From a virus: a DNA stretch of 64,000 bases. The position numbers were made by a program, and so were the translations under genes. This document shows positions 1 through 40,990 of the stretch, in pieces. The notes below the pieces were generated by a model that was not told the DNA's origin, ran no database searches, and saw only the letters and a list, made by a program, of their open reading frames with translations. The stretch's first letter is position 1. Every line of letters begins with the position of its first letter. The stretch covers positions 32,001 through 96,000 of the IMG/VR virus record IMGVR_UViG_3300045996_000592, one strand, 5' to 3'.

Positions 1-30
1 AAAACTGCGGATGAGAAAATAGCAGCCTAA
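1..30 (+). CDS. 3' end of an upstream gene (partial, KTADEKIAA*)
   Basis: Frame 1 is open from the window edge to TAA at 28-30 and is followed by a terminator-like hairpin. Confidence 0.5.
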   Translation, partial: KTADEKIAA

Positions 31-106: not shown

Positions 107-511
107 ATGACTAACTGGATAGAAGATATAAAAGAGTTCCAGACAACCTTCGGGTTAGGAGTTAAGGCCACACCCGGTTTTCCAGAAATAGATGTTATCA
201 AACTCCGACATAAACTGATAACAGAAGAGGTCCGCGAATTAACAGAGGCTGAGTTCGGACCAGATGGAGTTTATCATGGTTATGATATCATAGAAGCAGC
301 AGACGCCATCACAGATTGTCTGTACGTTCTTCTCGGTACCGCCTGTGAGTACGGTTTAATAGACCAGATAGACGAGTGCTGGAAAGCCGTCCATACCAAC
401 AACATGAGTAAGGTAGGTCCTGATGGTAAAGTACTTCGTCGGGAAGATGGCAAGATAATAAAACCAGCCGGGTTCCAACCGGTTAATCTTGAACCCATAA
501 TCTATGGATAA
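107..511 (+). CDS. MazG-like / PRA-PH family NTP pyrophosphohydrolase
   Basis: EEVREL...DAITDCLYV acidic helices and the VHxxNMSK...REDGKIIKP C-terminal signature. Confidence 0.85.
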   Translation: MTNWIEDIKEFQTTFGLGVKATPGFPEIDVIKLRHKLITEEVRELTEAEFGPDGVYHGYDIIEAADAITDCLYVLLGTACEYGLIDQIDECWKAVHTNNMSKVGPDGKVLRREDGKIIKPAGFQPVNLEPIIYG

Positions 512-770
512 TATAACAGAAGAACTACAGAAGTACGGACCCAAGAGAGCTGCCGAGATAGTCACGGAAAACTTCCAGTGCTTGGACGGGTTAGTAGAAG
601 ACGAAGAGCTCAGGTTCTGGTTAAGAAGTCTTATCACTACCTGTCTCTCCGGCTACGCGGAAGAAGTCTGGGACAGAGCCTGTGTCGTACAGAGAGCCCG
701 CTGCCGGGAACACCGGTTTTTAGTAGAAGCGCCCCTGATACCTTATAAAGAACATATGTATTATGAGTAA
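504..770 (+). CDS. hypothetical protein
   Basis: 88-aa ORF overlapping the upstream stop and filling the gap to polA. Confidence 0.6.
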   Translation: MDNITEELQKYGPKRAAEIVTENFQCLDGLVEDEELRFWLRSLITTCLSGYAEEVWDRACVVQRARCREHRFLVEAPLIPYKEHMYYE

Positions 771-781
771 ACCCCTGTCTT

Positions 782-2764
782 ATGATTTACCTGATAACCG
801 GCCAGTCTCAGCTCCACACAGAGGGCGCGGGATATAAACTGACCACGATAGAAGAAGTAGAACGGTACTTATCCGGAGTAGAGGAAGCCTCAGTAGATAC
901 AGAGACTACTGGGTTAGACGCTCATCGGGATAAACTACATACCCTGCAGATAGGTGATTACTATAACCAGTACATTATAGACGCCTCAACAACGGACATT
1001 ACCCGGTTGAAGCCCTACCTAGAAGAACGCTTGTTACTGATCCAGAACGCTAAGTTCGACCTGAAGTTCTTGTATAAGTACGGAATATACCCGCGTAAGG
1101 TGTGGGATACCTTCGTTACGGAGCGGGTTCTTTACTGCGGAATACCCGACCATAAGGCCGGTTTAGATTCACTGGTTCAACAGTACTGTAACATTACTTT
1201 GGATAAATCAGTACAGAAGACTATAGCAAAAGAAGGGCTGGTTACCAAAAACCTTCAGTATATGGCTGACGATATAAAGTATCTGTCAGCTATCAGGGAT
1301 AAGCAGCTGGTCGATCTCAGGAAGAAATATCTAAAGGGTACCTCTAATCTTGAAAACAAGTTTGTACCGGTCTTAGCCTACATCGAATACTGTGGTATGA
1401 AGCTGAACGTACCCAAGTGGACGGAGAAGATGATCACGGATAAAGACCGGATGAATAAGGCTAGGATAACCTTGGACAACTGGATACTGAATAAAGGTAT
1501 TAAGAAGTTTATCGAGGTGCAGGGTAACCTCTTCGACCCTCCGGGATGTACTGTTAACTGGTCTTCACCTAAACAGGTAGTAGATCTGCTCGAGCACCTT
1601 GGGGTAAACTGTACGATCGTAGAGAAGGGTAAGGAGAAGAAGTCGGTGGAGGCCTCAGTGATAGAGAAACAGAAGAACGAGTTTGAGATCATCTCCCTGT
1701 ACCTGGAATATAAGAAGGCGGAAAAAATAGTTGGTACATATGGAGAGAACTTTATCCGTCAGATTAACCCGGTAACCGGTAGAATACATACCAAGTTCAC
1801 TCAGATAATGGATACTGGCAGGATGTCTTCAGGCGGTAAGGACCGCGCTACAAAAGAAGAGTTCATCAACTTCCAGAACATACCATCTGACCCGGAAACG
1901 CGATCTTGTTTTATAGCAGAACCGGGAAGTACGCTGGTAGTATCGGACTACTCCGGTCAAGAGCAGATAGTACTCGCTAATAGGTGTCTGGATAAAAACC
2001 TGCTAAAGTTCTATGATGAAGGGCTGGCTGATATGCACTCATTCGTGGCGTCTAAGATGTACCCCGAACTCGAAGGGTTAGACCTTGACGAGATAAAGAA
2101 GTTACATAAGGATAAAAGACAGGCGGCTAAATCTGCTGGCTTCGCCATAAATTATGGTGGGAGTGGCATTACCATAGCAGATAACCTCGGTATCAGTAAA
2201 GAGGATGGGGATCGGATTTATAACGCCTACTTCCAAGCCTTTCCGGGGTTAAGTGACTACTTCAAGAAGGTGAAACAGCAGGGACTAAATGATGGTTATA
2301 TCCTGATAAGTCCAATAACAGGTAGGAAGTCTTATATCTACTTCTTCGACCGGTATAAGGAACTAGAAGCCCAAACAAAAGGAGACTTCTGGGAACGCTA
2401 CCGGGAAGCTAAGAAAACTCAGTCTAAAGACTGGCCAGAACTATCCAAGACCTGCCGAGAGTACTTCCAGTTAAAGGGAGAAATAGAGCGTATGACTCTT
2501 AACTACCCGATCCAGGGAAGTTCCGCCGACGTAACCAAGATTGCCTGTGTCTACTTCTATAACTGGATTATCAACAATAACTACTTCTGGACTGTGAAGA
2601 TCCCGAACGTAGTTCATGATGAGGTAGTGGCAGAGTGCCCCGTAGACCTCGGAGAAGAGGTGTCTCAGGTGTTACACGATACTATGGGTAAGGCAGGAGA
2701 TATATACTGTAAGAGAGTGCCACTAAAGGCAGACCCGGAACTAACAAGTGTATGGAAAAAATAG
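782..2764 (+). CDS. polA: DNA polymerase family A with 3'-5' exonuclease domain
   Basis: ExoI DTETTG, NAKFDL, TGRMSS, motif A DYSGQE, motif B RQAAKSAGFAINYG, NYPIQGSSAD, motif C VHDE. Confidence 0.96.
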   Translation: MIYLITGQSQLHTEGAGYKLTTIEEVERYLSGVEEASVDTETTGLDAHRDKLHTLQIGDYYNQYIIDASTTDITRLKPYLEERLLLIQNAKFDLKFLYKYGIYPRKVWDTFVTERVLYCGIPDHKAGLDSLVQQYCNITLDKSVQKTIAKEGLVTKNLQYMADDIKYLSAIRDKQLVDLRKKYLKGTSNLENKFVPVLAYIEYCGMKLNVPKWTEKMITDKDRMNKARITLDNWILNKGIKKFIEVQGNLFDPPGCTVNWSSPKQVVDLLEHLGVNCTIVEKGKEKKSVEASVIEKQKNEFEIISLYLEYKKAEKIVGTYGENFIRQINPVTGRIHTKFTQIMDTGRMSSGGKDRATKEEFINFQNIPSDPETRSCFIAEPGSTLVVSDYSGQEQIVLANRCLDKNLLKFYDEGLADMHSFVASKMYPELEGLDLDEIKKLHKDKRQAAKSAGFAINYGGSGITIADNLGISKEDGDRIYNAYFQAFPGLSDYFKKVKQQGLNDGYILISPITGRKSYIYFFDRYKELEAQTKGDFWERYREAKKTQSKDWPELSKTCREYFQLKGEIERMTLNYPIQGSSADVTKIACVYFYNWIINNNYFWTVKIPNVVHDEVVAECPVDLGEEVSQVLHDTMGKAGDIYCKRVPLKADPELTSVWKK

Positions 2765-2770
2765 TGCCCC

Positions 2771-3490
2771 ATGAAACCGTTATCAGATCATAAAGATAAA
2801 TCAGGAATATACTGTATTAAGAATATACAGAATGGTAAAGTTTATATAGGTAAGGCCAAATGTATCTTCAGTAGGATTCAGAGTCATATTTATGCTCTTA
2901 CCGGACGAAATAGTAAGAAGTCTAACTCTTATTTAATAAACTCCTGGCATAAGTATGGTCCGGACGCCTTCACATATTCAGTACTTGAAAACGTTGATTT
3001 TACAGATGAGTCCTTAATGCGGGATAGAGAACTTTATTGGATAAATCTAATGAATGCCCTGGACCCAGACAAGGGATATAATCTAAGATCCGACTCATCT
3101 ACAGGAATGGTTACTCATGAAAAAACCTCTAAGAAAATATCAGATCGACTAAAGAAAGAGTGGGAAGCTGGGTTAAGATCTAGTCACTCAGAAAAATTAA
3201 AGAAAAAGTGGGAGGAGGCTCCCCAAAGACGGACTGAACAGGGGAAGATGCTTTCTAAGATTAAAACTAAGTACTTCTATCATATAATAAATCCATCTGA
3301 TAAAGAAGACCTAGGAAGTTCTATGGTGATGGATATGTCTCCCGGAGTTCATGGAGGGTACGATTTACTAAAGAAGTTAGGACTACAGAACTGTATAACA
3401 ACCTTTTTTAATCGTAAGTCTAATTCTATATCCTTTAAGGGGTACGATATTATAAGATTCAACCCAGATACTGCACCTGAATTTGATTAA
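2771..3490 (+). mobile_element. free-standing GIY-YIG homing endonuclease gene
   Basis: GIYCI...KVYIG, conserved R (SRIQSH), E (DRELYW) and GYN; basic C-terminal tail; visibly AT-richer than its neighbours; directly after an intact polA. Confidence 0.9.
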
Positions 3491-3559
3491 GTACACAACA
3501 TTAACAAGAAGATCACCCGGGGGTACACTCAGCTAGACCTCTTCGGGATGGCCGCGTAA
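3491..3559 (+). pseudogene. orphan C-terminal coding remnant VHNINKKITRGYTQLDLFGMAA* with a beta-clamp-binding motif
   Basis: Open frame with no ATG start, directly after the GIY-YIG stop; QLDLF matches the QL[S/D]LF consensus. Confidence 0.55.
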
Positions 3560-4116
3560 AACAGAAGTTATGAAGAAGAGAACATCTATAGATTTCAGTA
3601 AGCACGTACTAACTACGTTTGAGGATAAGTACGTCACTATTTACGAGTTTAAAATACCCGGAACCTACACCCACAGTATGAAGTTTATTAACACGTCAGG
3701 GGTGATGACGGTCACCGGGGATTGGGGTAACTGGGTCTTCTGTAGAGAGTTTCATCCGGGCCCGGAAAATGGGGTTTCAGATGGTTACTGGATAGAGAAA
3801 CTACACATCAGTTCCTGTCAAAAACCCTATAAGTATGATTCTGACGAGACTACAAGAAGATTAAAGGAACGTTTACAAGAGATCAAGGAGGAATACGAAG
3901 AGGGAAGTAGGTATGAACAGTTAAAAGAGTACTACGAGAGCTGTCTGGAAAACGTGGACGACTATTATGACTACATACAGGCAGCTCGGGACCACCCCGG
4001 TTTTATGGATGCAGAGAGTATAATAGAAGGTAAAGAACTAAACAGATGGTTAGAGGCAATCTTCGACGGGTTCGACGAGATATGTTCCCGGATGAAGGTC
4101 GCTCAGGCCGCGTAAA
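3550..4116. repeat. 11-bp direct repeat GGCCGCGTAAA (3550-3560 and 4106-4116) flanking ORF 3570-4115
   Basis: Identical copies, each containing a TAA stop. Confidence 0.55.
3570..4115 (+). CDS. hypothetical phage protein
   Basis: 181-aa ORF; VTGDWGNWVF...YWIEKL resembles a common phage hypothetical family. Confidence 0.75.
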   Translation: MKKRTSIDFSKHVLTTFEDKYVTIYEFKIPGTYTHSMKFINTSGVMTVTGDWGNWVFCREFHPGPENGVSDGYWIEKLHISSCQKPYKYDSDETTRRLKERLQEIKEEYEEGSRYEQLKEYYESCLENVDDYYDYIQAARDHPGFMDAESIIEGKELNRWLEAIFDGFDEICSRMKVAQAA

Positions 4117-4126
4117 CAAACATTTT

Positions 4127-4267
4127 ATGATAGAATTACTAATAGGAGTAGGCGGCCTCATCGTATGCTGGATAGCGTACAGAGCAGGTTACAGGAACGG
4201 TCTTGTAGCAGCAGAAGATGATGAGTATGATAACGATTATGAACCGGAAGAATTTACAGGAGTATGA
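4127..4267 (+). CDS. small membrane protein
   Basis: ATG 4127; hydrophobic helix LLIGVGGLIVCWIAY then an acidic tail; ATGA overlap with the next gene. Confidence 0.6.
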   Translation: MIELLIGVGGLIVCWIAYRAGYRNGLVAAEDDEYDNDYEPEEFTGV

Positions 4268-4731
4268 TAAACAACTTTGATATACCTACCCTAACAGACG
4301 TTATGGTAGCGGTAACAGCCTACAAACAGTTGGCCCACTATTTTCCCTCGATAAACAGGGAGCAAACAGAACAGATAAAGCCTTACTGGGACAAGTGGCA
4401 GAAAAATGTTGGCACTGATCGTACAGGTTACAGTAGGTTCCATGAGTTCTGGTCAGACATAGAGTTACACCTTGTATCCCAAACATGGGGTAGTACCGCT
4501 TGCGGGTGGGGTGGAATCGGCGGGGCTGCTATAACTACCGCATATACTCTCGTTATCACCAACAAACACCTGAATGCAGCATTCATCTACTGGGCCGGTA
4601 AACTGGCGTATGTAGTGGACATGGATAAGAAATATCAAACTCTGATAACAGGGGAGTCAGGTTACTCCGCGCTACCAGGACTGAACAGGGTGAAAGAAAG
4701 ATTAACCGTTATATACAGTGAGAGAAGATGA
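4264..4731 (+). CDS. hypothetical phage protein
   Basis: 155 aa; QTWGSTACGWGGIGGAAIT glycine motif; ATGA overlaps at both ends. Confidence 0.75.
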   Translation: MINNFDIPTLTDVMVAVTAYKQLAHYFPSINREQTEQIKPYWDKWQKNVGTDRTGYSRFHEFWSDIELHLVSQTWGSTACGWGGIGGAAITTAYTLVITNKHLNAAFIYWAGKLAYVVDMDKKYQTLITGESGYSALPGLNRVKERLTVIYSERR

Positions 4732-5258
4732 CACCAACATTAATACAGAAGTGCTGGGAGGTACATGATAGGACTACAGTAGACTGGTCGTTATCCTATG
4801 AAGCTCGTCAGCACTATACCTACAGAGAACACATACTGGCAGAAACCGCGTCTAAGGCTAAGGGTAAGTTTATAGAACACGCCCGGTTTATCGACCTGAA
4901 AGCTGTACGCTGTGAGGAGTACGACCAAGTAGAAGTAGACGGTAAAAAGATGAGGCGTAATGAGGTAGACAACTACCTTAGAAAGCAGGAGAGAAAGAAG
5001 AAGATACAAGAACTACCGGAAGATCAGCTCTACTACGTTCAGAACGGGTTCGTGGGTAACTGCCCGCTCTTCTGGGGACTCGGTAACTGCGGGTACACCT
5101 CAGACCTTGATAAAGCCCAGAAGTACACCAAAGAACAGATAGTAAAAGAGTTTTCTAACCCACGGGAACAGGATATTATCTGGTTAGCTGCAGAAGTAGA
5201 CAGTAAAGTAAAAAGAATAGTAGATCACCAGTACTTAGATTACACAAAAAGCGTATGA
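4728..5258 (+). CDS. hypothetical phage protein
   Basis: 176 aa; VGNCPLFW...GYTSDLDKAQ motif; coupled overlaps. Confidence 0.75.
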   Translation: MTPTLIQKCWEVHDRTTVDWSLSYEARQHYTYREHILAETASKAKGKFIEHARFIDLKAVRCEEYDQVEVDGKKMRRNEVDNYLRKQERKKKIQELPEDQLYYVQNGFVGNCPLFWGLGNCGYTSDLDKAQKYTKEQIVKEFSNPREQDIIWLAAEVDSKVKRIVDHQYLDYTKSV

Positions 5259-5653
5259 TAACACAGATATATCAGTTGCTCTTCGGTAAAAAGAAAGAGC
5301 AGAAAAAAGAACAGAAGCGCCCCGCTACACCTTACGGGGGTAGTTCAACCCAGTCATCTAATGCGAATGACTCCCAGAGTTCTTATGACCCGCTGCTCGA
5401 TCCGATGAACCCGGTCAGTCCTTTGTGGATCGGGAACTCAGATAGTTCTTCCAATCATAATAATAACTCTTTCGGTGGGTACGGTGGAGGGGAAAGTGGT
5501 GGCTCTGGAGCAGGCGGTTCATGGGAATCACACAGTAACCACTCTTACGATAGCGGGAGTACCTACGACAGTTCCCCCTCTTATGGCTCAGATAGCAGCT
5601 CTTATGATAGTGGTAGTTCTTTTGACAGCAGTTCATCCGGGAGTTTTGACTAA
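5255..5653 (+). CDS. Ser/Gly-rich low-complexity protein
   Basis: FGGYGGGESGGSGAGGSW followed by repeated YDSS/FDSS units. Confidence 0.7.
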   Translation: MITQIYQLLFGKKKEQKKEQKRPATPYGGSSTQSSNANDSQSSYDPLLDPMNPVSPLWIGNSDSSSNHNNNSFGGYGGGESGGSGAGGSWESHSNHSYDSGSTYDSSPSYGSDSSSYDSGSSFDSSSSGSFD

Positions 5654-5665
5654 ACCTTTGATCGT

Positions 5666-5896
5666 ATGACCTACACAGTAGACTTCCCGGATGATGTAGA
5701 TGTATTCTACTGGGACTACATCATAGAACCGACTCAGAGATCAGGGATAAATAAAATAATAGTCTTCTTCGAACACGATACCCGGCGCACTACAAAATTC
5801 GTAGGACACACTACCCGGTCTAACGCAGATTGGCGGGAGTTCCAGATAACAGAAGAAGAACAGGAAGGTAAGAGAAAACTAATATTTAAGATATGA
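5666..5896 (+). CDS. hypothetical protein
   Basis: 76 aa, ATGA-coupled to the next gene. Confidence 0.6.
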   Translation: MTYTVDFPDDVDVFYWDYIIEPTQRSGINKIIVFFEHDTRRTTKFVGHTTRSNADWREFQITEEEQEGKRKLIFKI

Positions 5897-6288
5897 AGCA
5901 CACCATAAAAACCTATGAATATAAGCGGATAGAAAAAACCGCTACCGAGATAGAGATACCCGAAGAGACTATATACTGTTTTCAAACTGGTATACGTCGG
6001 GCAGTTAAGATAGAACCTCAATGGACTACTTGGAATAAAGAGAACTACCAAAAAGATGAAGAAGTGTGGAACCTTAAAATTACCTGTGTATATAACTCTT
6101 TCGAGTGTAAAATAGAGCAGTATACTATACAGGTTTCTCAGCTTGAGGATAATATAAATCGCGGTAAAGATTCCTACAGTATTCCTAACCTTTTACTCCA
6201 CCGTGATTTTAACCTACGTACAAAAGAACAGTTTGAGGCTGACTTAAAGATAGCTCTCGATAAAATAACCGGTGTAACTGAAGATTAA
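5893..6288 (+). CDS. hypothetical protein
   Basis: 131 aa in a tightly packed gene run. Confidence 0.7.
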   Translation: MKHTIKTYEYKRIEKTATEIEIPEETIYCFQTGIRRAVKIEPQWTTWNKENYQKDEEVWNLKITCVYNSFECKIEQYTIQVSQLEDNINRGKDSYSIPNLLLHRDFNLRTKEQFEADLKIALDKITGVTED

Positions 6289-6290
6289 TT

Positions 6291-6551
6291 ATGACACAAA
6301 AAGTAGAACTACTATACCGGGACGCTGCTAACTACAAGTTCTGAGTAACAGCAGAGATAGACTGGGAATCACTTGGTTTCCCCAGCCCCCTAGAAGTAGA
6401 CCAGGATATAGAGATGGAGCAACTCAGGTTAGACCCGTACAAGTTCGTTCCGGCAAGAATGGGTTTTCCGTGGAATGAGGATGACCACAACATCCTGACC
6501 GTTGAGGAAATCCTGAAAGAAGACATAGAAGTAGAATTAACGATAAAGTAA
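6291..6551 (+). pseudogene. ORF interrupted by an in-frame TGA (6342-6344), or a read-through gene
   Basis: MTQKVELLYRDAANYKF*VTAEIDW...WNEDDH...TIK*; fills the gap between its neighbours. Confidence 0.65.
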
Positions 6552-6570
6552 ACCTTAAAAACAACAAAAG

Positions 6571-7584
6571 ATGGCTCACAAGATCAATTATAATAACGGT
6601 AAGTACGCCTTTGCCTCATCCGAGAAGGAATGGCATTCAGGGGAGACTAACCACCACATTCACGGGCGGGAGATGACCGCTGAAGAGATTATCCGGTTAG
6701 CCGGCCTTGACTACGACGTACAGAAGATGCCGATCGTGGCTAAAGTACCTTCCGGCCGGTTCAGCATGGACGTACCAGTGGATGGGAACTTCGCTACCGT
6801 AAGAACAGATACCAACCAGGTACTCGGAATAGTAGGTAAGAAGTATCAGATACTACAGAATAAAGACGCCTTTAAGTTCTTCGACTCTATCGTAGGGGAA
6901 GGTGAAGCCATGTATCATACCGCCGGCGCTCTTGGTAACGGAGAGAAGATATTCATCACAGCTAAACTCCCGCAGAAATTAGTAATAACTCCGGATGATG
7001 TAACAGACCAGTACCTCTTCCTCTGCAATAGCCACGACGGATCTGGCAGTCTTTCTGCGTACTTCACGCCGATCCGGGTAGTGTGCAACAATACACTCAG
7101 GTTATCCATGAAGTCTAATTCCTACAGGATAAACCTCAGACATACCGCGAATATCGTAAAGGCGCTGGAACAGGCCCACGAACTGATGGGGATTGTCAAT
7201 AGAGAAGGTCAGGACTTCTTGGAAGTGTGTAAGACCATGACCCGGGTATCGGTTACAGACCAGCAGCTCAGGAAGTTTATCGAGTTATCCCTCAAACCGG
7301 AGACCGAAATGATCACAGAGGATGAGTTCTCTAAAAGATTCACAAATATAGCTGACGCAGCCTATGAGTACGCACTATCTGACGAGACTCAGCTGATGGA
7401 TACAACTCGTGGTACACTATACGGCGCATTCCAGGCAGTGACCGGCTACTACTCGAATGTGAAGCAGTATAACTCTGGTGAGGATAAAACCAAGTCACTC
7501 ATCTACGGAGCAGGGTATCGCGCCTCTAATCAGGCTTACCAGATGGGAGTAAGGGCATTAAGTAACACTAACTTTTTGAACTAA
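6571..7584 (+). CDS. DUF932 family phage/plasmid-like protein
   Basis: TVRTDTNQVLGIVG..YQILQN.DAF.FFD, TAGAL..G, NSHDGS, TPIRVVCNNTL, LRHT. Confidence 0.9.
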   Translation: MAHKINYNNGKYAFASSEKEWHSGETNHHIHGREMTAEEIIRLAGLDYDVQKMPIVAKVPSGRFSMDVPVDGNFATVRTDTNQVLGIVGKKYQILQNKDAFKFFDSIVGEGEAMYHTAGALGNGEKIFITAKLPQKLVITPDDVTDQYLFLCNSHDGSGSLSAYFTPIRVVCNNTLRLSMKSNSYRINLRHTANIVKALEQAHELMGIVNREGQDFLEVCKTMTRVSVTDQQLRKFIELSLKPETEMITEDEFSKRFTNIADAAYEYALSDETQLMDTTRGTLYGAFQAVTGYYSNVKQYNSGEDKTKSLIYGAGYRASNQAYQMGVRALSNTNFLN

Positions 7585-7592
7585 CCAGCACA

Positions 7593-7626
7593 AGGAAGGT
7601 AGGTCTCAGGATCTACCTTCCTCTTT
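7593..7626 (+). terminator. intrinsic terminator-like hairpin
   Basis: AGGAAGGTAGGTC-tcag-GATCTACCTTCCT followed by CTTT, just after the DUF932 stop. Confidence 0.65.
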
Positions 7627-7639
7627 AAAACTTAACAGG

Positions 7640-7816
7640 ATGACAGAGTATAACATCAAGATATCAGGTTCTGGTACAGCCTTAGAATTAGCGCTTTCCA
7701 TGGATCTCCTTCAGAAAAGTATCATAGATAGTGTGAAGAAGGGGTATTCTCTGGAATCAGACCCCTATTATGAAGATGAGACTATCGTAGTAGAAATAAC
7801 CCAAACATCATTATGA
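7640..7816 (+). CDS. small hypothetical protein (58 aa, not in the ORF track)
   Basis: MTEYNIKISGSGT...TQTSL*; ATGA overlap with 7813. Confidence 0.6.
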   Translation: MTEYNIKISGSGTALELALSMDLLQKSIIDSVKKGYSLESDPYYEDETIVVEITQTSL

Positions 7817-8103
7817 TAAAAACCAACCTCACTCCATACAGCTACACCCGGTACTACTCCGGTAATTATTTCGATGGGATAAATGATTACTCCTACTCTG
7901 TCATAACCACAGAGACTTTCGACCTCTGCCCCGAATACCCATTACAGGTAGACTGGACGGACGGGAATATTCCCTATGGGCATGAGCGGATAGAAGCCAA
8001 AATAATACAAGATTTTAATAACAAAAAAGACCAAGAAAGAAAACAGATTGAGGATAACTACAGAAGAGAAGTCCTCGGTGAAGAAGATGAACCTAAAGAC
8101 TAA
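7813..8103 (+). CDS. hypothetical protein
   Basis: 96 aa, coupled to the upstream ORF. Confidence 0.65.
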   Translation: MIKTNLTPYSYTRYYSGNYFDGINDYSYSVITTETFDLCPEYPLQVDWTDGNIPYGHERIEAKIIQDFNNKKDQERKQIEDNYRREVLGEEDEPKD

Positions 8104-11208: not shown

Positions 11209-11540
11209 ACAGACCGCTAATTTATATAGCTGGTAAAATCAGTGATCTACCACCCGGGGTAGCTGAGAAAAACTTCCACGACGCCCAGGTTAGACTGGAA
11301 AATCAGGGGTGGGATACCCTTAACCCTTACGCCCGGATAGAAGGGTGGAAGAAGCAGAACGAGGACTACAAAGAAATAATGAGGTTAGTTCTTCAAGACC
11401 TCGCATCCTGTAAACATGCCTACTTCCTGAGGGGGTGGGAAAGAAGTTTAGGAGCGACGTTTGAGCACTTCGTTTGTCAGAAGACCGGGATAAAGATAAT
11501 TTATGAAGAACAACCTAAGGAGGAGACCGTAGAGATATGA
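11205..11540 (+). CDS. DUF4406 family protein (nucleoside deoxyribosyltransferase-like fold)
   Basis: IYIAGKIS, NF..A...L...G...LNP, L..C...YFLRGWERSLGATFE. Confidence 0.85.
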   Translation: MNRPLIYIAGKISDLPPGVAEKNFHDAQVRLENQGWDTLNPYARIEGWKKQNEDYKEIMRLVLQDLASCKHAYFLRGWERSLGATFEHFVCQKTGIKIIYEEQPKEETVEI

Positions 11541-12370
11541 TACTAAATTTAAGCAACCCACCGGCCTCAATAATCAAGGCTAAGATCGGTAAATACCCTG
11601 ATGGTCAGCAGTATGTTATTATCGACCCACAATTTACTGTAGGGGAGAACGGAATAACGATATACTCCCGGTTCAACTCCTTCCTGGATTTAGAACTAAT
11701 AGTGACTGCCACTAAAGCGCTACAAAACCTTGATGTAAAGAAAATAAATCTATACGTTCCCTACATACTCGGTGCCCGGTCTGACCGGAAGTTTGAGTAT
11801 GGTGGAACGTCCTATCTGGTGCAGATTATAGCGCCTATCCTGAACAGTTTGGGCCTCACCAAAGTTTACTGCTTGGACGTACACAACCAGGCAGTAGCAG
11901 AGGCGTGTATTAATAACCTCGTTTGTTATGATAACTCAGAGTTTATCAAACGAGTACTGGGTGACATACAATCCAAAAACCTTGTTATTGTTACCCCGGA
12001 CGACGGCGCGTCCAAAAAGATATACCCGCTCTGTAAAAAACTCGGTTTAGAAGTACCCGTCGTCGTGTGTGCCAAACACAGGGATATTAAAACCGGTAAG
12101 ATAGAAGGGGTAGATATCCCTCACGGGACACACTTCAAAAATGAAGAGGTAATGTTAATAGATGATATCTGTGATGGCGGCAGGACGTTCATCGAAATAG
12201 CCAAGAAGTTAAAAACTTGGGGAGAACCTGCTAAAATGTACCTGGCTGTCACTCACGGAATATTTTCCGCGGGGTTTGATGAACTACACCAGTACTTTGA
12301 CCAGATATTTTCTACTAACTCCGTGAAAGATCACCCAAATATATCTGTAACTCAATATCCAGTAATATGA
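11537..12370 (+). CDS. prs: ribose-phosphate pyrophosphokinase-like protein (candidate NARP1 Adps)
   Basis: YPDGQ, PYILGARSDR, LDVH, TPDDGA, KHRD..TGKI, IDDICDGGRTF, VTHGIFS. Confidence 0.92.
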   Translation: MILNLSNPPASIIKAKIGKYPDGQQYVIIDPQFTVGENGITIYSRFNSFLDLELIVTATKALQNLDVKKINLYVPYILGARSDRKFEYGGTSYLVQIIAPILNSLGLTKVYCLDVHNQAVAEACINNLVCYDNSEFIKRVLGDIQSKNLVIVTPDDGASKKIYPLCKKLGLEVPVVVCAKHRDIKTGKIEGVDIPHGTHFKNEEVMLIDDICDGGRTFIEIAKKLKTWGEPAKMYLAVTHGIFSAGFDELHQYFDQIFSTNSVKDHPNISVTQYPVI

Positions 12371-12795
12371 TAGATAAATATATAAACAGGTTAACCGAAG
12401 AGTGGTTACAACACGGTAAGATAATAGTAGCCATAGACTTTGATGACACAATATCTCCTTGGAAGCTGAACAGTCAGGAAGAGTGCAATAAAGTAATTGA
12501 GGTTCTTAAAGATGTGTGTGCTGTCGGAGCCTATATAGTAATATTTACAGCCTGCAGTAGTGACCGTTATCAGCACATCGCAGAATACTGTACTTCTAAA
12601 GGGTTTAGTATAGATAGAATAAACCAGAACCCCATAGTCTTACCATACGGTAACCAGACTAAGGTGTACGCGAACATATTCCTCGATGACCGCGGAGGTC
12701 TGGACGAAGCACTCAATATCTTACAAGAGAGCATGTACCGGGTACGTTCATCCAAGTATGGTAAGAACCTCTCGGAACAAACAGTAGAATTTTAA
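12367..12795 (+). CDS. capless HAD-superfamily phosphatase-like protein
   Basis: Motif I AIDFDDTI, FTA, K, motif IV IFLDDRG. Confidence 0.8.
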   Translation: MIDKYINRLTEEWLQHGKIIVAIDFDDTISPWKLNSQEECNKVIEVLKDVCAVGAYIVIFTACSSDRYQHIAEYCTSKGFSIDRINQNPIVLPYGNQTKVYANIFLDDRGGLDEALNILQESMYRVRSSKYGKNLSEQTVEF

Positions 12796-12807
12796 AAACA
12801 GATACTC

Positions 12808-14361
12808 ATGTTTAAACCAAACGCTTTATACTACGTAGATGGGTATAAGATCGCTCATAAAAAGATGCTGGCAGCAGGTACCACCCGTCTATACGGAACC
12901 TGGATACCAAGGTCAGTAAAATATGCTCCTAAAGGAGTAAATAAGATAGTATCATTCGGTCAGCAGTTAATGGTACGCTGGCTGCACGATGAGTTCACGG
13001 AGAACTTTTTCAACCTTCCGGTAGATGTAGCTCACCGATTCGGTAAAGATATGTGCCTATACCTTGGGATGGACTACGACTACACGCACTTCACAGAACT
13101 GCATAATCTCGGTTATCTCCCAATCCGCATCAAATCATTACCAGAAGGAGTAGAAACTGATCCGAATATCCCACATATGACCTTCATTAATACTGTAGAC
13201 GGGTTTGGATGGCTTACTCTGTTCCTTGAAACTATCATTAGCGCCCTGGCGTGGAAGGCCCCGACTGCAGCCACTATTCAGAAACTCTATAACCGTAACA
13301 CTATGGAGTGGGTCACTAAAACCGATCCGGATAATTTATGGTTAGTACCGTTCCTTAACCATGATTTCAGCGCCCGCGGCCTTGATCCATTCTCGATGAT
13401 GGCAGTTGGTCTAGGCCATGCTACAAGTTCTTTGGGCTCAGATACACTCATAACCATCCCGGCTGCCCGTTATTATTATGACGAGCCCGAAGAGGAGGTC
13501 TGTGTGTTCTCTGTTAACGCCTCGGAACACTCAGTATCTACAACCAAAATATTTACAGTAGGGGAGCAGCAGATGATAGCAGACTGGTTACAGGATTTCC
13601 CGAAGGGAATACTATCTATTGTATCTGACACTTTCGACCTGTGGAAACTGATAACCGAGTACTTACCGGCCAATAAGGGATCCATTATGTCGAGGGAGGG
13701 TAAACTAGTCATACGTCCTGACAGTGGTGATCCGGTAGATATTATCTGCGGTTGTAAGGTTACTCAATCTGATGAAGATGAATTACTATATCGTGACCAG
13801 GATACATGGGAATCCTACCCGCCAGAAGAAGACATAGTTATTGTGAAACATAAGGTTGGTGCCAAGCCGGTATCTGAAGCGGAAAGCAAAGGGGTTATAG
13901 AAATCCTTTGGGATATATTCGGCGGTACTGTGAACACACACGGTTATAAAGTACTTGATCCTCATATTGGCGCCATCTATGGTGACTCGATAACTCCGGA
14001 CCGTCAGGTAGAAATCTATAAACGGTTAGCGGCTAAAAGGTTTGCTACTACCAACATCGTCTTGGGTATAGGGTCCTACACTTACCAGATGGTAACTCGT
14101 GATACACTAGGGTTTGCTGCTAAAGGCGCCTGGTTTGAGGCCAATGGTACGGGTTACGATATCTACAAGGATCCGGTGACAGATGATGGAACCAAAAAGT
14201 CACTAAAGGGGCTCATTAAAGTAAATCCCAACTTCACTGTTTGTACCCAATGTTCCCCGGAAGAGGAGTCAACCGGTTTACTCCAAACCATATATGAGAA
14301 CGGGCAGTATTATAACAAGACCACTTTAAAAGACGTCCGTAACAGACTTAAGAACATATGA
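12808..14361 (+). CDS. nadV: nicotinamide phosphoribosyltransferase-like protein (candidate NARP1 Namat)
   Basis: DGYKIAH, HDFSARG, GSDT, ASEHSV, SIVSDTFDLW, IRPDSGDP, IYGDSI, GIGS, RDTLGFAAK, KDPVTDDGTKKSLKG. Confidence 0.95.
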   Translation: MFKPNALYYVDGYKIAHKKMLAAGTTRLYGTWIPRSVKYAPKGVNKIVSFGQQLMVRWLHDEFTENFFNLPVDVAHRFGKDMCLYLGMDYDYTHFTELHNLGYLPIRIKSLPEGVETDPNIPHMTFINTVDGFGWLTLFLETIISALAWKAPTAATIQKLYNRNTMEWVTKTDPDNLWLVPFLNHDFSARGLDPFSMMAVGLGHATSSLGSDTLITIPAARYYYDEPEEEVCVFSVNASEHSVSTTKIFTVGEQQMIADWLQDFPKGILSIVSDTFDLWKLITEYLPANKGSIMSREGKLVIRPDSGDPVDIICGCKVTQSDEDELLYRDQDTWESYPPEEDIVIVKHKVGAKPVSEAESKGVIEILWDIFGGTVNTHGYKVLDPHIGAIYGDSITPDRQVEIYKRLAAKRFATTNIVLGIGSYTYQMVTRDTLGFAAKGAWFEANGTGYDIYKDPVTDDGTKKSLKGLIKVNPNFTVCTQCSPEEESTGLLQTIYENGQYYNKTTLKDVRNRLKNI

Positions 14362-30100: not shown

Positions 30101-33100
30101 ATCCTTTAACCCGGCGTCCGTAATAACCGTTTCCGTAGGTATGGGCCCACCATCCTCGTAACGGGTAGTCCTGCTGACAAAATATTTCTTACCGTTGACC
30201 GAGTGATAATTCAGCTCCATCGGGCTCAGGCCTTCCTTCACAAAATCAAATTCTCCGGTAGTAGTAGCAAAACTCATCAGTTCAGACAACTTTTCCCCGG
30301 ATAGGACCAGGGACTTCTTATCCTTCATCTCCGCTGCGATCAGTATGCGGAGCTGGTCAGCCTGGATAGCATTATTTACGAACGCCTTATGAAGTTCTAT
30401 GGGATTACCCCCCTTTATGTCTGTCTTGAATATCCTGATAAAATCCTTTAGGGTGATATCCCGGGCACTGATCGTCTTACCGTCTATTTTAACCGTATAC
30501 AACCCGCCGTAAGTCAGGAACCCGACCGGGGTATCATTACCGTCAAGGTGTATAGCTACATTAAAGGGGTTGGAGTTTGTGAACAGGTAGGGGTTTGACG
30601 TCTTCCTGTTGGAGTACTGGGCGCCGTTATTTGGGGTAATCCTCACAGACAATCTGCTGTTCAGTTGGTCCTTTGGTATGGCTACCAGTATGTCACTCAT
30701 CTGTTGTTTGGCTGCCTCAGTTAACACCCCCCGTTCTTCCTGTGAGAGCCCTGACCATAAAACGGTGTCAGCCATTTCAGGGATATAAGGGTATATCCTG
30801 ACCAGCTCGTGTACACGGGTCAGCTTTAGGTTTTCTTCGGGTTTTTCTACAGGTTCCTCTACGGTCAGTTTTTCTATAGAAGACACCTGCAGTTTATCCT
30901 TACTGTTCGACGGGTTGACCAGAGTGAGGTAACTATCCTTTACACCGGATACACGCCACCTGCCTTCGGGGTTGGAAACTGTTTTCTTACCGGTGAGCAC
31001 TTCTCCTACGTGTAACGTCTTACCGTCAAACTCCACTGTATCGCTCTTTATCTTACCCGAGGAATAATCATTTTTGAAGGTGTCCACGGTATAACGCGAA
31101 CCGTCTGCGAACCGAAACTCATTACCGATAACACGGTCTACTGTAACAGTCCGTACTTCCCCTTCGTCATTCTTATAAGTAAACGACTTACCCACATACC
31201 AGTTAATATCCTCCGGGGCTTCTGCAGGAGTAAGCTCTTCTTCAGGCGACGCCTCGTCAGTGATGATCTCTGTGGCGAGTTCTTCCTTGACCTCTTCTAC
31301 ACCGGCCTCTTTCATCATCTCCTCTATCCTGGCCTGCAGAAGATTACGGGCCGCCTCTTCCAGCGCCTCTGCTACTTTATTATGAACCTTAATAAACTCC
31401 ACCGGGTTTACCAGTGTGTTATACGCCTGTATGTGCTTACCTGCCTGTTTGTCCAGCTTGATGTAATCCAGCAGTTGGCCCATGGTGTCCTCTACGTCCG
31501 ACTCCGATACGATAGACTTATTGTTATTCTGGGCGTTAACCGAGTTGATATAACCCCTGTAGGAGTTCAGCAGCTTACCCCGGAAGTCGGAGCGGGCCGA
31601 TGTCTCGTCCAGGTCGGTTAGTGGGTTCTCGTGTACTTCCCTGATACGTTCCAGGTTAGCCAGTTGTTCCTTCATCTGATTACGTAATTCAGCAGACTCG
31701 GCTATCCCCTCAAGTGTCTTTATCTCTTTGGTCAGGAGTTTGATCTCTTTTTCCAGCGTATCCAGACTACCAATAATGTCGAACGCCTTGTTTACGGATG
31801 CCCCGATACCCGGCACACGGGCTGCTTCCGACTTCAGCTGGGCGGCCCTTTTAACGGCCTGCTTCATCTTGTAGTCAGAGGTAGCCAGTATCTCGATGGC
31901 CTCATCCAGCGCTCTCTTGGCTACCAGGGCCTTAAAACGATCTGATTCAGGGTCGAGTATTTTCTCACCCTTGTCGTTCGTCAAGTCTTTACCGTCAGCA
32001 TCCTTCATATAAGATGCGGCGTACTGTTCAGGTTTTACCCTGCCAGCGAACCTATCCTTCAGGTCTTCCCATACGGTATAAAAATCTTTTATCTGTGACG
32101 CGAACCCGGTCATGTACTCACGCACCTTCCCCTTACCGGCCTCTGTAAAGTCGATTCCGAACGCCTGCTTGAACTCCTCCTCGGTAAGATGTTCTCCGTA
32201 AGACTCTATTGTATCGAGTACACTGTCGAACATATTCATCTTGATGGCGGTACTGAATAGTTTAGCCGCACCGGTCTCCTTGATGTTGTTGTAGTTGAAC
32301 CTGTCCTGTGACTGCAGGGCCGCTTCCATCCCCTTAGCCGCTTCATCCTGTACTTTCAGGTTAGCGATCGCTGGGTTCAGTATGTTCTTAGGATCTTTAT
32401 AGAAGGCGTTCAGCAGCTCTATGTTCTCCTGTACGTCCTTATCAGCCGCCGTTTTAGCGTCACGGTATCCCTGGTTAAACCGGGAACGGGTAGCGTCATA
32501 TCCCTTCATCAATCCTGTCTGAATAGGGCTCACGAGCTTACCTGTTACCGCGCCCATCAGGAAGGTCTTGAAGCCTTCTTTGGATGCCTGTGCCCCCAGT
32601 CCTTTATCTACCGACTCTTCCCAGCTACCTTTACGGCCATCATACAGATCCGTATAGTAATCGGTAATTGCGGTCTGTGAGGAGTTCTGCAACAGTTCCT
32701 GTACGCCTTCCGCTACTTCCATCTTACCGGCGTGAAGACCGACAGACTTAGCTGCCTCCCAGTAGGCCTTACCGGCACCAAAGTCGTTCTTTATCTGGCG
32801 GAACGCTCCGAGTTTACCGAACCAGTCGGATTTCCTGTAGGCCTGGGTAGCTTCTTTACCTGCTATCTTACCTGAGACCTCAAATGCCTTTTCCTCGGCA
32901 TCTGTAGCCAGTTTCGACAGGGCCTTTTTTGAAGAAGAGAACTTATCCATCAGGTTACCGAACTCTATCCGGTTCATCACCGCCAGGATACCTGTATTCA
33001 CGATGAAGTTATCTGTGGCGCCGTCCTTGGCCAACCGCTCTATGCGGTTAAGGTCTTCCCCAATAGGGTCTGTACCGTGAGTGCTGACGTACTTCTCGTA

Positions 33101-40711: not shown

Positions 40712-40990
40712 CTATATTAGTTTGTCCTCCTGTTTGATAACCCTCTGTTCCATTTGTACCAACTCCCAAACCTCACAGAGCTCTATGATATCGAACTCGA
40801 AGGAGTCCTCACCGTACTTATTCCAGGCGTGCTGGAGATGAGTATTTTCATGATAATTATATTTTAGAGTCTTCCTGTGGTTCCCCCAACGGGCTTTGAA
40901 GTTATTAGTATAACCAATATATCTTTTACCGTCAACCTTATTAGTAATACAGTATATACCGGACAACTTCCAGATTTCTCTTTCAGTCAT
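40712..40990 (-). pseudogene. truncated GIY-YIG endonuclease (catalytic-domain fragment)
   Basis: GIYCI...RYIG, R and E present, but the ORF ends before the conserved Asn and has no DNA-binding tail; 92 aa. Confidence 0.7.

Follow-up and report, generated by a model that had tools for sequence, protein, structure and literature searches.

A start-less clamp motif behind a homing endonuclease gene at the polA locus of an environmental virus genome: a probable remnant of a family-B DNA polymerase gene

How does one type of DNA polymerase gene come to stand where another type stood? In crAss-like phages, in situ switching between family-A (PolA) and family-B (PolB) DNA polymerases has been deduced from phylogeny and gene order, and it is called enigmatic in the part of the literature available to this work (Yutin et al. 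2021, PMC7886860). A locus that may bear on this question is found in a 64,000-nucleotide stretch of viral DNA, positions 32,001 to 96,000 of IMG/VR record IMGVR_UViG_3300045996_000592; this whole stretch is called the window below. In the window, a polA gene is followed by a GIY-YIG homing endonuclease gene (HEG), and the HEG is followed by 22 codons without a start, referred to as the stub, which carry a beta-clamp-binding motif. The current work indicates that the stub is probably the 3' remnant of a polB gene. An earlier sequence-only reading of this DNA had also regarded the stub as the last codons of a polB, overwritten by a joint cassette of polA and the GIY-YIG gene.

The anatomy of the locus is simple. 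The polA gene is complete (782-2764, plus strand; 660 amino acids (aa)), and only 6 nt separate its stop from the start of the HEG (2771-3490, plus strand; 239 aa), which is intact and free-standing. The HEG product ends in ...PEFD, with the TAA stop at 3488-3490. The next 69 nt on the same strand (3491-3559), read in the HEG frame, give VHNINKKITRGYTQLDLFGMAA followed by TAA, and they lie within a spacer of 79 nt between the HEG stop and the next gene. Thus polA, HEG and stub share one reading frame, broken first by TAG plus two codons and then by TAA, an arrangement expected by chance in 1 of 9 cases; no recoding signal was found at the polA/HEG/stub junctions. The virus record that holds the window is 134,155 bp long and rated complete. 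Two soil-metagenome runs, each from a different study, have contigs in which the region 2300-4300 is present with 0 differences; the arrangement is therefore not an assembly accident of a single data set, although either run may be the source of the record.

The first codon of the stub is GTA, which is not a start; its sole ATG is codon 20, and no usable start (ATG, GTG or TTG) precedes that codon. The stub is not translatable as it stands, and its motif is a relic rather than a working one. The motif itself, QLDLF (3530-3544, plus strand), stands four codons ahead of the stop. QL(S/D)LF is the published beta-clamp-binding consensus (Dalrymple 2001, as given in the available portion of the review PMC11139829), and QLDLF is named in the same portion as the strongest clamp-binding pentapeptide. 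Judged by its letters, the pentapeptide conforms to the definition of a clamp motif, for which a broader form, Q-aliphatic-x-[LM]-[FL], was also used in this work. Further copies of the stub DNA were sought in the genome and in the PolA loci, and only chance matches of 10 to 16 nt were found. A gene for a beta clamp is not encoded in the genome.

The PolA product was compared with its relatives. It matches DNA_pol_A (PF00476, E 1.1e-62) over profile positions 19-380 of 381 and DNA_pol_A_exo1 (PF01612, E 5.5e-22), and thus comprises a 3'-5' exonuclease and a polymerase domain. Its C-terminus reads ...TSVWKK and is followed by TAG. The same WKK end is seen in its relatives, as FWKK in Leptolyngbya phage Lbo-JY46 and as YWKK in two relatives of 60% identity, and in all three the next gene follows directly behind it. 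Because the protein is full-length and ends as its relatives do, the stub is not the tail of polA. Lbo-JY46 has the nearest PolA among named phages (54% identity), and the PolAs of Crassvirales share 33-40%. A DNA search of named phages gave no more than two matches, one of 355 nt in polA (71%) and one of 83 nt (76%), and a scan of viral contigs with PolA alone gave no match. In Lbo-JY46 itself (L001 in the numbering of loci used here, 4935-7898), a LAGLIDADG endonuclease gene interrupts polA, whose product appears in the annotation as two separate proteins.

The HEG matches Pfam GIY-YIG (PF01541) with 33.3 bits against a cut-off of 22.6. It aligns over its full length with 31 homologs and keeps every invariant column; as predicted from this alignment, it is an intact GIY-YIG homing endonuclease. 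Figures on its homologs refer to the best 120 of 269. Most of these are 198-255 aa long, with a few shorter or longer, and most stop, as does the HEG in the window, within about 20 residues past the FKGY.I.R block. The clamp-like pattern Q[LIVM][SDE][LIVM]F is found in 0 of the 120. Many homologs from polB loci (P0125-P0243, loci L097-L176) have a conserved C-terminal extension (...ERLIIEDIVRHSEKSEI...) that is missing from the window HEG; its source might be a conserved sequence, flanking or intron-like, at the site of insertion in polB.

The HEG family resides mainly in polB. Among 80 viral-contig loci with HEG homologs, PolB segments (tblastn with the PolB of crAss002, E <= 1e-4) flank the HEG in 74, and the interruption is usually near residue 563/564 or near 372/405 of crAss002 PolB. 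In a 75th locus (L097) the contig starts at the HEG, which is followed by a 163-aa PolB C-part open reading frame (ORF) ending in KKTQLNLFE and a stop. The other five loci have the HEG directly after polA: the pair L108/L109, in which it follows an 836-aa PolA recognized by Pfam, and L168, L171 and L172, whose PolAs were judged T7-like by eye. Metagenome contigs with HEG relatives gave a similar distribution, with PolB in 77 of 80, one HEG after a PolA relative (L238) and two short contigs with neither polymerase; these counts are not independent of those from the viral contigs because the two collections overlap. Such a distribution indicates that the HEG family has several times passed between residence in polB and positions behind polA.

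When 81 HEGs are arranged in a maximum-likelihood tree, the window HEG falls within a clade of 35 rows (Shimodaira-Hasegawa-like approximate likelihood ratio test (SH-aLRT) 99), in which it forms a long branch at the unresolved base. The 34 other rows of this clade comprise 31 HEGs at the PolB site near 563/564, the HEG of L097, and the identical HEGs of L108 and L109 after PolA; apart from the window HEG, 32 of 34 rows thus interrupt polB at one site. In L102 and L097 the polB is in pieces, with the HEG between an N-part and a C-part. The N-part ORF of L102 ends with a stop, and the C-part in both loci starts from an ATG of its own that either overlaps the HEG stop or lies directly against it. 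The HEG is richer in A and T than the neighboring polB parts in nine of nine clade loci. In the window, the G+C content is 35.8% in the HEG, 45% in polA and 52.2% in the stub, so that the stub is closer to host-gene DNA than to HEG DNA, a weak indication from 69 nt. Just upstream of another HEG-split polB (L149, 827-1375), a transfer-messenger RNA gene (70.9 bits) and a transfer RNA (tRNA) gene were detected.

The C-termini of the PolBs that house these HEGs carry the clamp motif. The 11 PolB C-part ORFs examined from the HEG clade close with a Q-L-x-L-F pentapeptide in which neither L varies and Q and F are kept in at least 90%. In a filtered set of 42 unique PolB-like C-termini, chosen by the signature of the last helix, QLxLF is found within the last 10 residues in 21 and a looser clamp motif in 26. 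Among seven named Crassvirales genomes, four have PolBs that end in a clamp motif (KQLNLFNFDEF, RQLELF, QMSLWN and QMSLWD, each before the stop); the other three, all Intestiviridae, have a different ending, ...N.[LI]F.... The sequence-only reading had assumed a terminal clamp motif for Crassvirales PolBs at large; this holds for much of the group, in these four and in wider kin, but not for the three Intestiviridae. The number of residues after the F of the motif is 4 in the stub and 0-5 at PolB ends. When a profile of 26 PolB ends was run against 7,026 six-frame segments of the genome, the stub ranked first (13.6 bits, E 0.02), a score driven mainly by the motif.

The position of the polymerase gene was compared through its flanking genes. 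Upstream of polA lies a conserved triad, comprising a PD-(D/E)XK nuclease, a protein of about 190 aa and a protein of about 135 aa, which spans from 2055 bases before the window to base 30 of the window; the end of its third gene (1-30, plus strand, by tblastn) is thus the first feature of the window. The triad is common to the window genome, to the polA-type loci L003-L007 and to the loci L099, L102/L103 and L115, where a polB is interrupted by a HEG (tblastn, 29-41% identity); the L003 homolog of the nuclease gives a Pfam PDDEXK_1 match. Homologs of the MazG-like gene of the window are downstream of polB in L097, L102 and L115, and a DUF932 gene is found behind the polymerase in both L003, with polA, and L102, with polB. 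Five complete relatives (122-136 kb) were compared; polB without polA is present in two of them, and polA without polB in three. In these relatives polA and polB are mutually exclusive at the same position.

A PolB fragment or a HEG of this kind beside polA was found in 0 of 80 other PolA-relative loci; the only GIY-YIG gene among them is a distant one in L073, 4.4 kb from polA. The window genome is the odd one: it has polA, but its HEG belongs to the polB-resident clade and is followed by a PolB-like end. Several statements of the sequence-only reading hold in the light of these comparisons. The 22 start-less codons stand right behind the GIY-YIG stop, QL[S/D]LF agrees with the clamp-binding consensus in the available portion of PMC11139829, the PolA is complete and ends in VWKK without such a motif, and the alternation of polA and polB at this locus is seen in relatives that share the triad, in agreement with what could be drawn from PMC7886860.

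Taken together, the stub is probably derived from the 3' end of a polB. That the HEG also came from the same polB is a further claim, and the chances of both being true are about even. The HEG is likelier to have been part of the lost polB than of a polA cassette because 32 of the 34 other members of its clade reside in polB and none of the 80 other PolA loci has it. The ancestral state would have been a polB N-part, a HEG and a polB C-part of about 160 aa ending in QLxLF, as in related phages today. Recombination between a replication module of the polA type and one of the HEG-split polB type would then have placed polA where the polB N-part had been, and the HEG, as a selfish element, would have been kept intact through the exchange. 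The polB C-part, of no further use, would have been deleted to its last 22 or fewer codons, which now abut the start of the next gene. Most likely the stub does nothing now and is a dead remnant, start-less and behind the stop of the HEG.

The case is built on context and five residues, and several observations weigh against it. The similarity between the stub and PolB stops at the motif of 5-6 residues; upstream of the motif, the last helix of PolBs reads ...YY[LI]xxxYKEI.... The match to PolB C-termini expected by the sequence-only reading was obtained in one comparison and not in others: against the first rank in the profile of 26 ends stand a profile of 14 sequences whose source, the ORFs that follow the 20 best HEG matches, was fixed a priori, and in which the stub received 2.5 bits (E 57) and fell outside the top six, and an hhalign comparison with PolB ends that aligned only TQLDLF, in 6 columns, with E 0.026 and a probability of 1.9%. 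No other PolB remnant was found in the genome by tblastn with PolB N- and C-parts, and Pfam DNA_pol_B gave no hit. A deletion of about 140 codons that ended flush with the HEG stop is needed. HEGs of the same family occur directly after polA without a stub in L108/L109, L168/L171/L172 and L238; a former polB therefore does not follow from the mere presence of a HEG beside polA.

The relatives add to these difficulties. QL[SD]LF is present in a non-terminal position inside 56 of 120 nearest PolA homologs, and therefore the pentapeptide is not exclusive to PolB ends. It is located in the linker between the exonuclease and polymerase domains, where the window PolA has QGNLF (residues 247-251, window 1520-1534); a looser clamp-like pentapeptide is found there in 91 of the 120, and about 16 carry Q-x-[DN]-L-F as the window PolA does. 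From these sequences, the linker pentapeptide may be an internal clamp-binding site of the PolA clade or merely a structural motif. The flanking genes of the window are about equally distant from polA-type and polB-type relatives, so that the direction of the swap cannot be read from them, and the downstream accessory genes of the window have no counterpart in either type. A close relative without the HEG was not found, the nearest PolA, from a large protein collection, being 62% identical and the nearest HEG 50%.

An alternative source for the stub is the 3' end of another clamp-binding gene, such as one for a small clamp-targeting protein or a repair enzyme, truncated by insertion of the HEG. 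Clamp motifs are short and are found at the ends of many unrelated proteins, according to the accessible text of PMC11139829, and nothing past the motif ties the stub to PolB. This explanation is unlikely, since no ORF of at least 60 aa in the genome ends in a clamp-like motif, no gene with such an end stands near polA in the 82 loci scanned (the 80 PolA-relative loci and the records of two named phages, about 0.8 Mb), and PolBs are the sole bearers of a C-terminal clamp motif found among the kin of this phage.

The origin from polB may also be accepted with a different course of events, namely that proposed by the sequence-only reading, in which polA and the HEG arrived together and overwrote a resident polB free of any HEG. 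The polB remnant in that proposal is retained here as probable; the joint cassette is doubtful. It would fit the position of the HEG, 6 nt behind the polA stop and in the same frame, and HEGs of the same family stand directly after polA elsewhere (L109, L168, L171, L172 and L238). The residence of the clade in polB and the empty count among the PolA loci, both given above, speak against it, as does the contact of the HEG stop with the stub, which repeats the arrangement in relatives, where the polB C-part touches or overlaps the HEG stop.

Chance must also be weighed: QLDLF may have arisen by accident in one frame of an ordinary spacer. QL[SD]LF occurs once in the six frames of the 134,155-bp genome, which is unremarkable because 30 mononucleotide shuffles of the genome gave a mean of 0.43 and a maximum of 2 occurrences. 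An open frame of 22 codons is nothing out of the ordinary, the motif was singled out post hoc, and the spacer shows no promoter, terminator or RNA structure above the level of shuffles. It is the place of the motif, not its count per genome, that is unlikely. In the 82 loci, the strict motif was found no more than 12 codons from the stop of a short frame in 2 cases (L009 and L032), both on the minus strand; from the shuffle and 82-locus rates, the chance of QLDLF in this 79-nt spacer on this strand is estimated at about 1e-4. Here the strand is that of the genes, the stop comes four codons after the motif, a HEG of a polB clade directly precedes the stub, and the kin carry polB at this locus; an accident of this sort is improbable.

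A repeat in the same spacer was treated as coincidence. The 11-mer GGCCGCGTAAA closes both the stub (3550-3560, ..MAA and stop) and the next gene, ORF181 (4106-4116, ..QAA and stop), and each copy is followed by an ATG 10-11 nt further on. At least two matches with at most one mismatch were obtained in 17 of 100 shuffles.

If the HEG stood inside a group I intron close to the polA 3' end, with the stub as a second exon that supplies PolA with a clamp tail, the common reading frame of polA, HEG and stub would be accounted for. In place of the internal QL[SD]LF of many relatives, the PolA has QGNLF, and databases label homologs of the HEG as 'group I intron endonuclease'. Nevertheless, this explanation is very improbable. 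Rfam finds nothing intron-like in 2300-4300, even at E <= 10, and the PolA of relatives ends at the same WKK without an extension. The 6 nt before and 79 nt after the HEG leave no room for an intron core. In seven loci of HEG-split polB, Rfam at gathering scores likewise detected no group I intron, although introns with large ORFs may escape Rfam. The last alternative, that the stub is the C-terminus of the HEG itself, cut off by a nonsense mutation to TAA at 3488 (which the sequence-only reading had named as the outcome that would undo its proposal) or added by read-through, has the shared frame in its favor and is hardly credible, since none of the 120 homologs extends into such a tail and none of the 4 tRNA genes of the genome is a suppressor, which removes both the nonsense and the read-through readings.

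The genes around the junction complete the picture of the locus. Between the triad and polA are the MazG-like pyrophosphohydrolase gene (107-511, plus strand; Pfam PRA-PH, E 2.4e-10) and an ORF of 88 aa with no family match (504-770, plus strand). Behind the stub, the accessory gene ORF181 (3570-4115, plus strand; 181 aa) opens a stretch of about 3 kb (3570-6570) of small genes that precedes a DUF932 gene at 6571-7584. ORF181 is unrelated to PolB; it was considered as a diverged PolB C-part and rejected, with an hhalign probability of 0.14% against PolB-C. It has four homologs of 44-47% identity, all in unrelated phage contexts. In the small-gene run, ORF181, ORF155 and ORF176 have no match in the five complete relatives, and the stretch looks like a hypervariable accessory region adjoining the polymerase. 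Farther along the window, phosphoribosyl-pyrophosphate synthetase-like and nicotinamide/nicotinate phosphoribosyltransferase-like genes were recognized by Pfam at 11537-14361. A second GIY-YIG domain (40724-40966, minus strand; 49 bits) is in an open frame of 105 aa among large structural genes and shares 39% identity with residues 10-73 of the L102 HEG; by its sequence it may be a truncated second endonuclease gene. The window also contains an ORF of 4300 aa, a size taken here to be typical for virion RNA polymerases of crAss-like phages; like the PolA identities to Lbo-JY46 and Crassvirales, it bears only indirectly on membership in that group.

If the origin of the stub from polB is true, this locus would be the first candidate junction of a polA/polB exchange, and it points to a testable mechanism in which HEG-split polB genes are the recombination partners. 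A bolder extension, for which the present evidence gives no great likelihood, is that switching of polymerase type is driven, or exploited, by polB-resident HEGs. A double-strand break made by the HEG in polB would be repaired from a co-infecting polA genome, giving polA-HEG hybrids, and the retained HEG would then cut polB-type competitors while its own polymerase is immune. Quite apart from the stub, the large GIY-YIG clade that resides in phage polB genes, the products of which have a canonical clamp motif at their end, is a lead on the use of the host replisome, and the alternative PolA with an internal QL[SD]LF-like pentapeptide is a second.

Comparison with known systems shows that homing endonucleases, clamp motifs and polymerase switching are each of an already known kind. 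As in the system of Yutin et al. (PMC7886860), one position in complete environmental relatives with the shared triad is occupied by polA in some and by polB in others; the difference is the candidate scar and the HEG at the junction, a physical remnant not described in the available part of that paper. Free-standing HEGs are known to split essential phage genes, as in the fragmented nrdA of an Aeromonas phage (PMC3045599, from the part of the text at hand). The polB of L102 and L097, present as separately started N-part and C-part ORFs around a GIY-YIG gene, is similar to it; in the window, by contrast, the split gene is gone, and a HEG and a stub of 22 codons remain beside a non-homologous polymerase gene.

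In the sections at hand of Barth, Dunham and Seed (2023, PMC10448857), HEGs were placed at the boundaries of genetic exchange between phages, in 'HEG islands' and within homologous regions. The window HEG similarly adjoins an essential replication gene at the junction of modules of different ancestry, although here the exchange would be between non-homologous polymerases. The C-terminal clamp motifs of the bacterial polymerases Pol II and Pol IV, as treated in the available portion of PMC11139829, are matched by the exact consensus QLDLF near the C-terminus of the stub, with the difference that the motif of the stub is an untranslatable relic. A literature search found no description of such a scar or of a HEG-split polB in this role. 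What is new is the conjunction of these known elements as a candidate junction scar, together with the large HEG clade that splits a clamp-motif-bearing polB in the kin of this phage.

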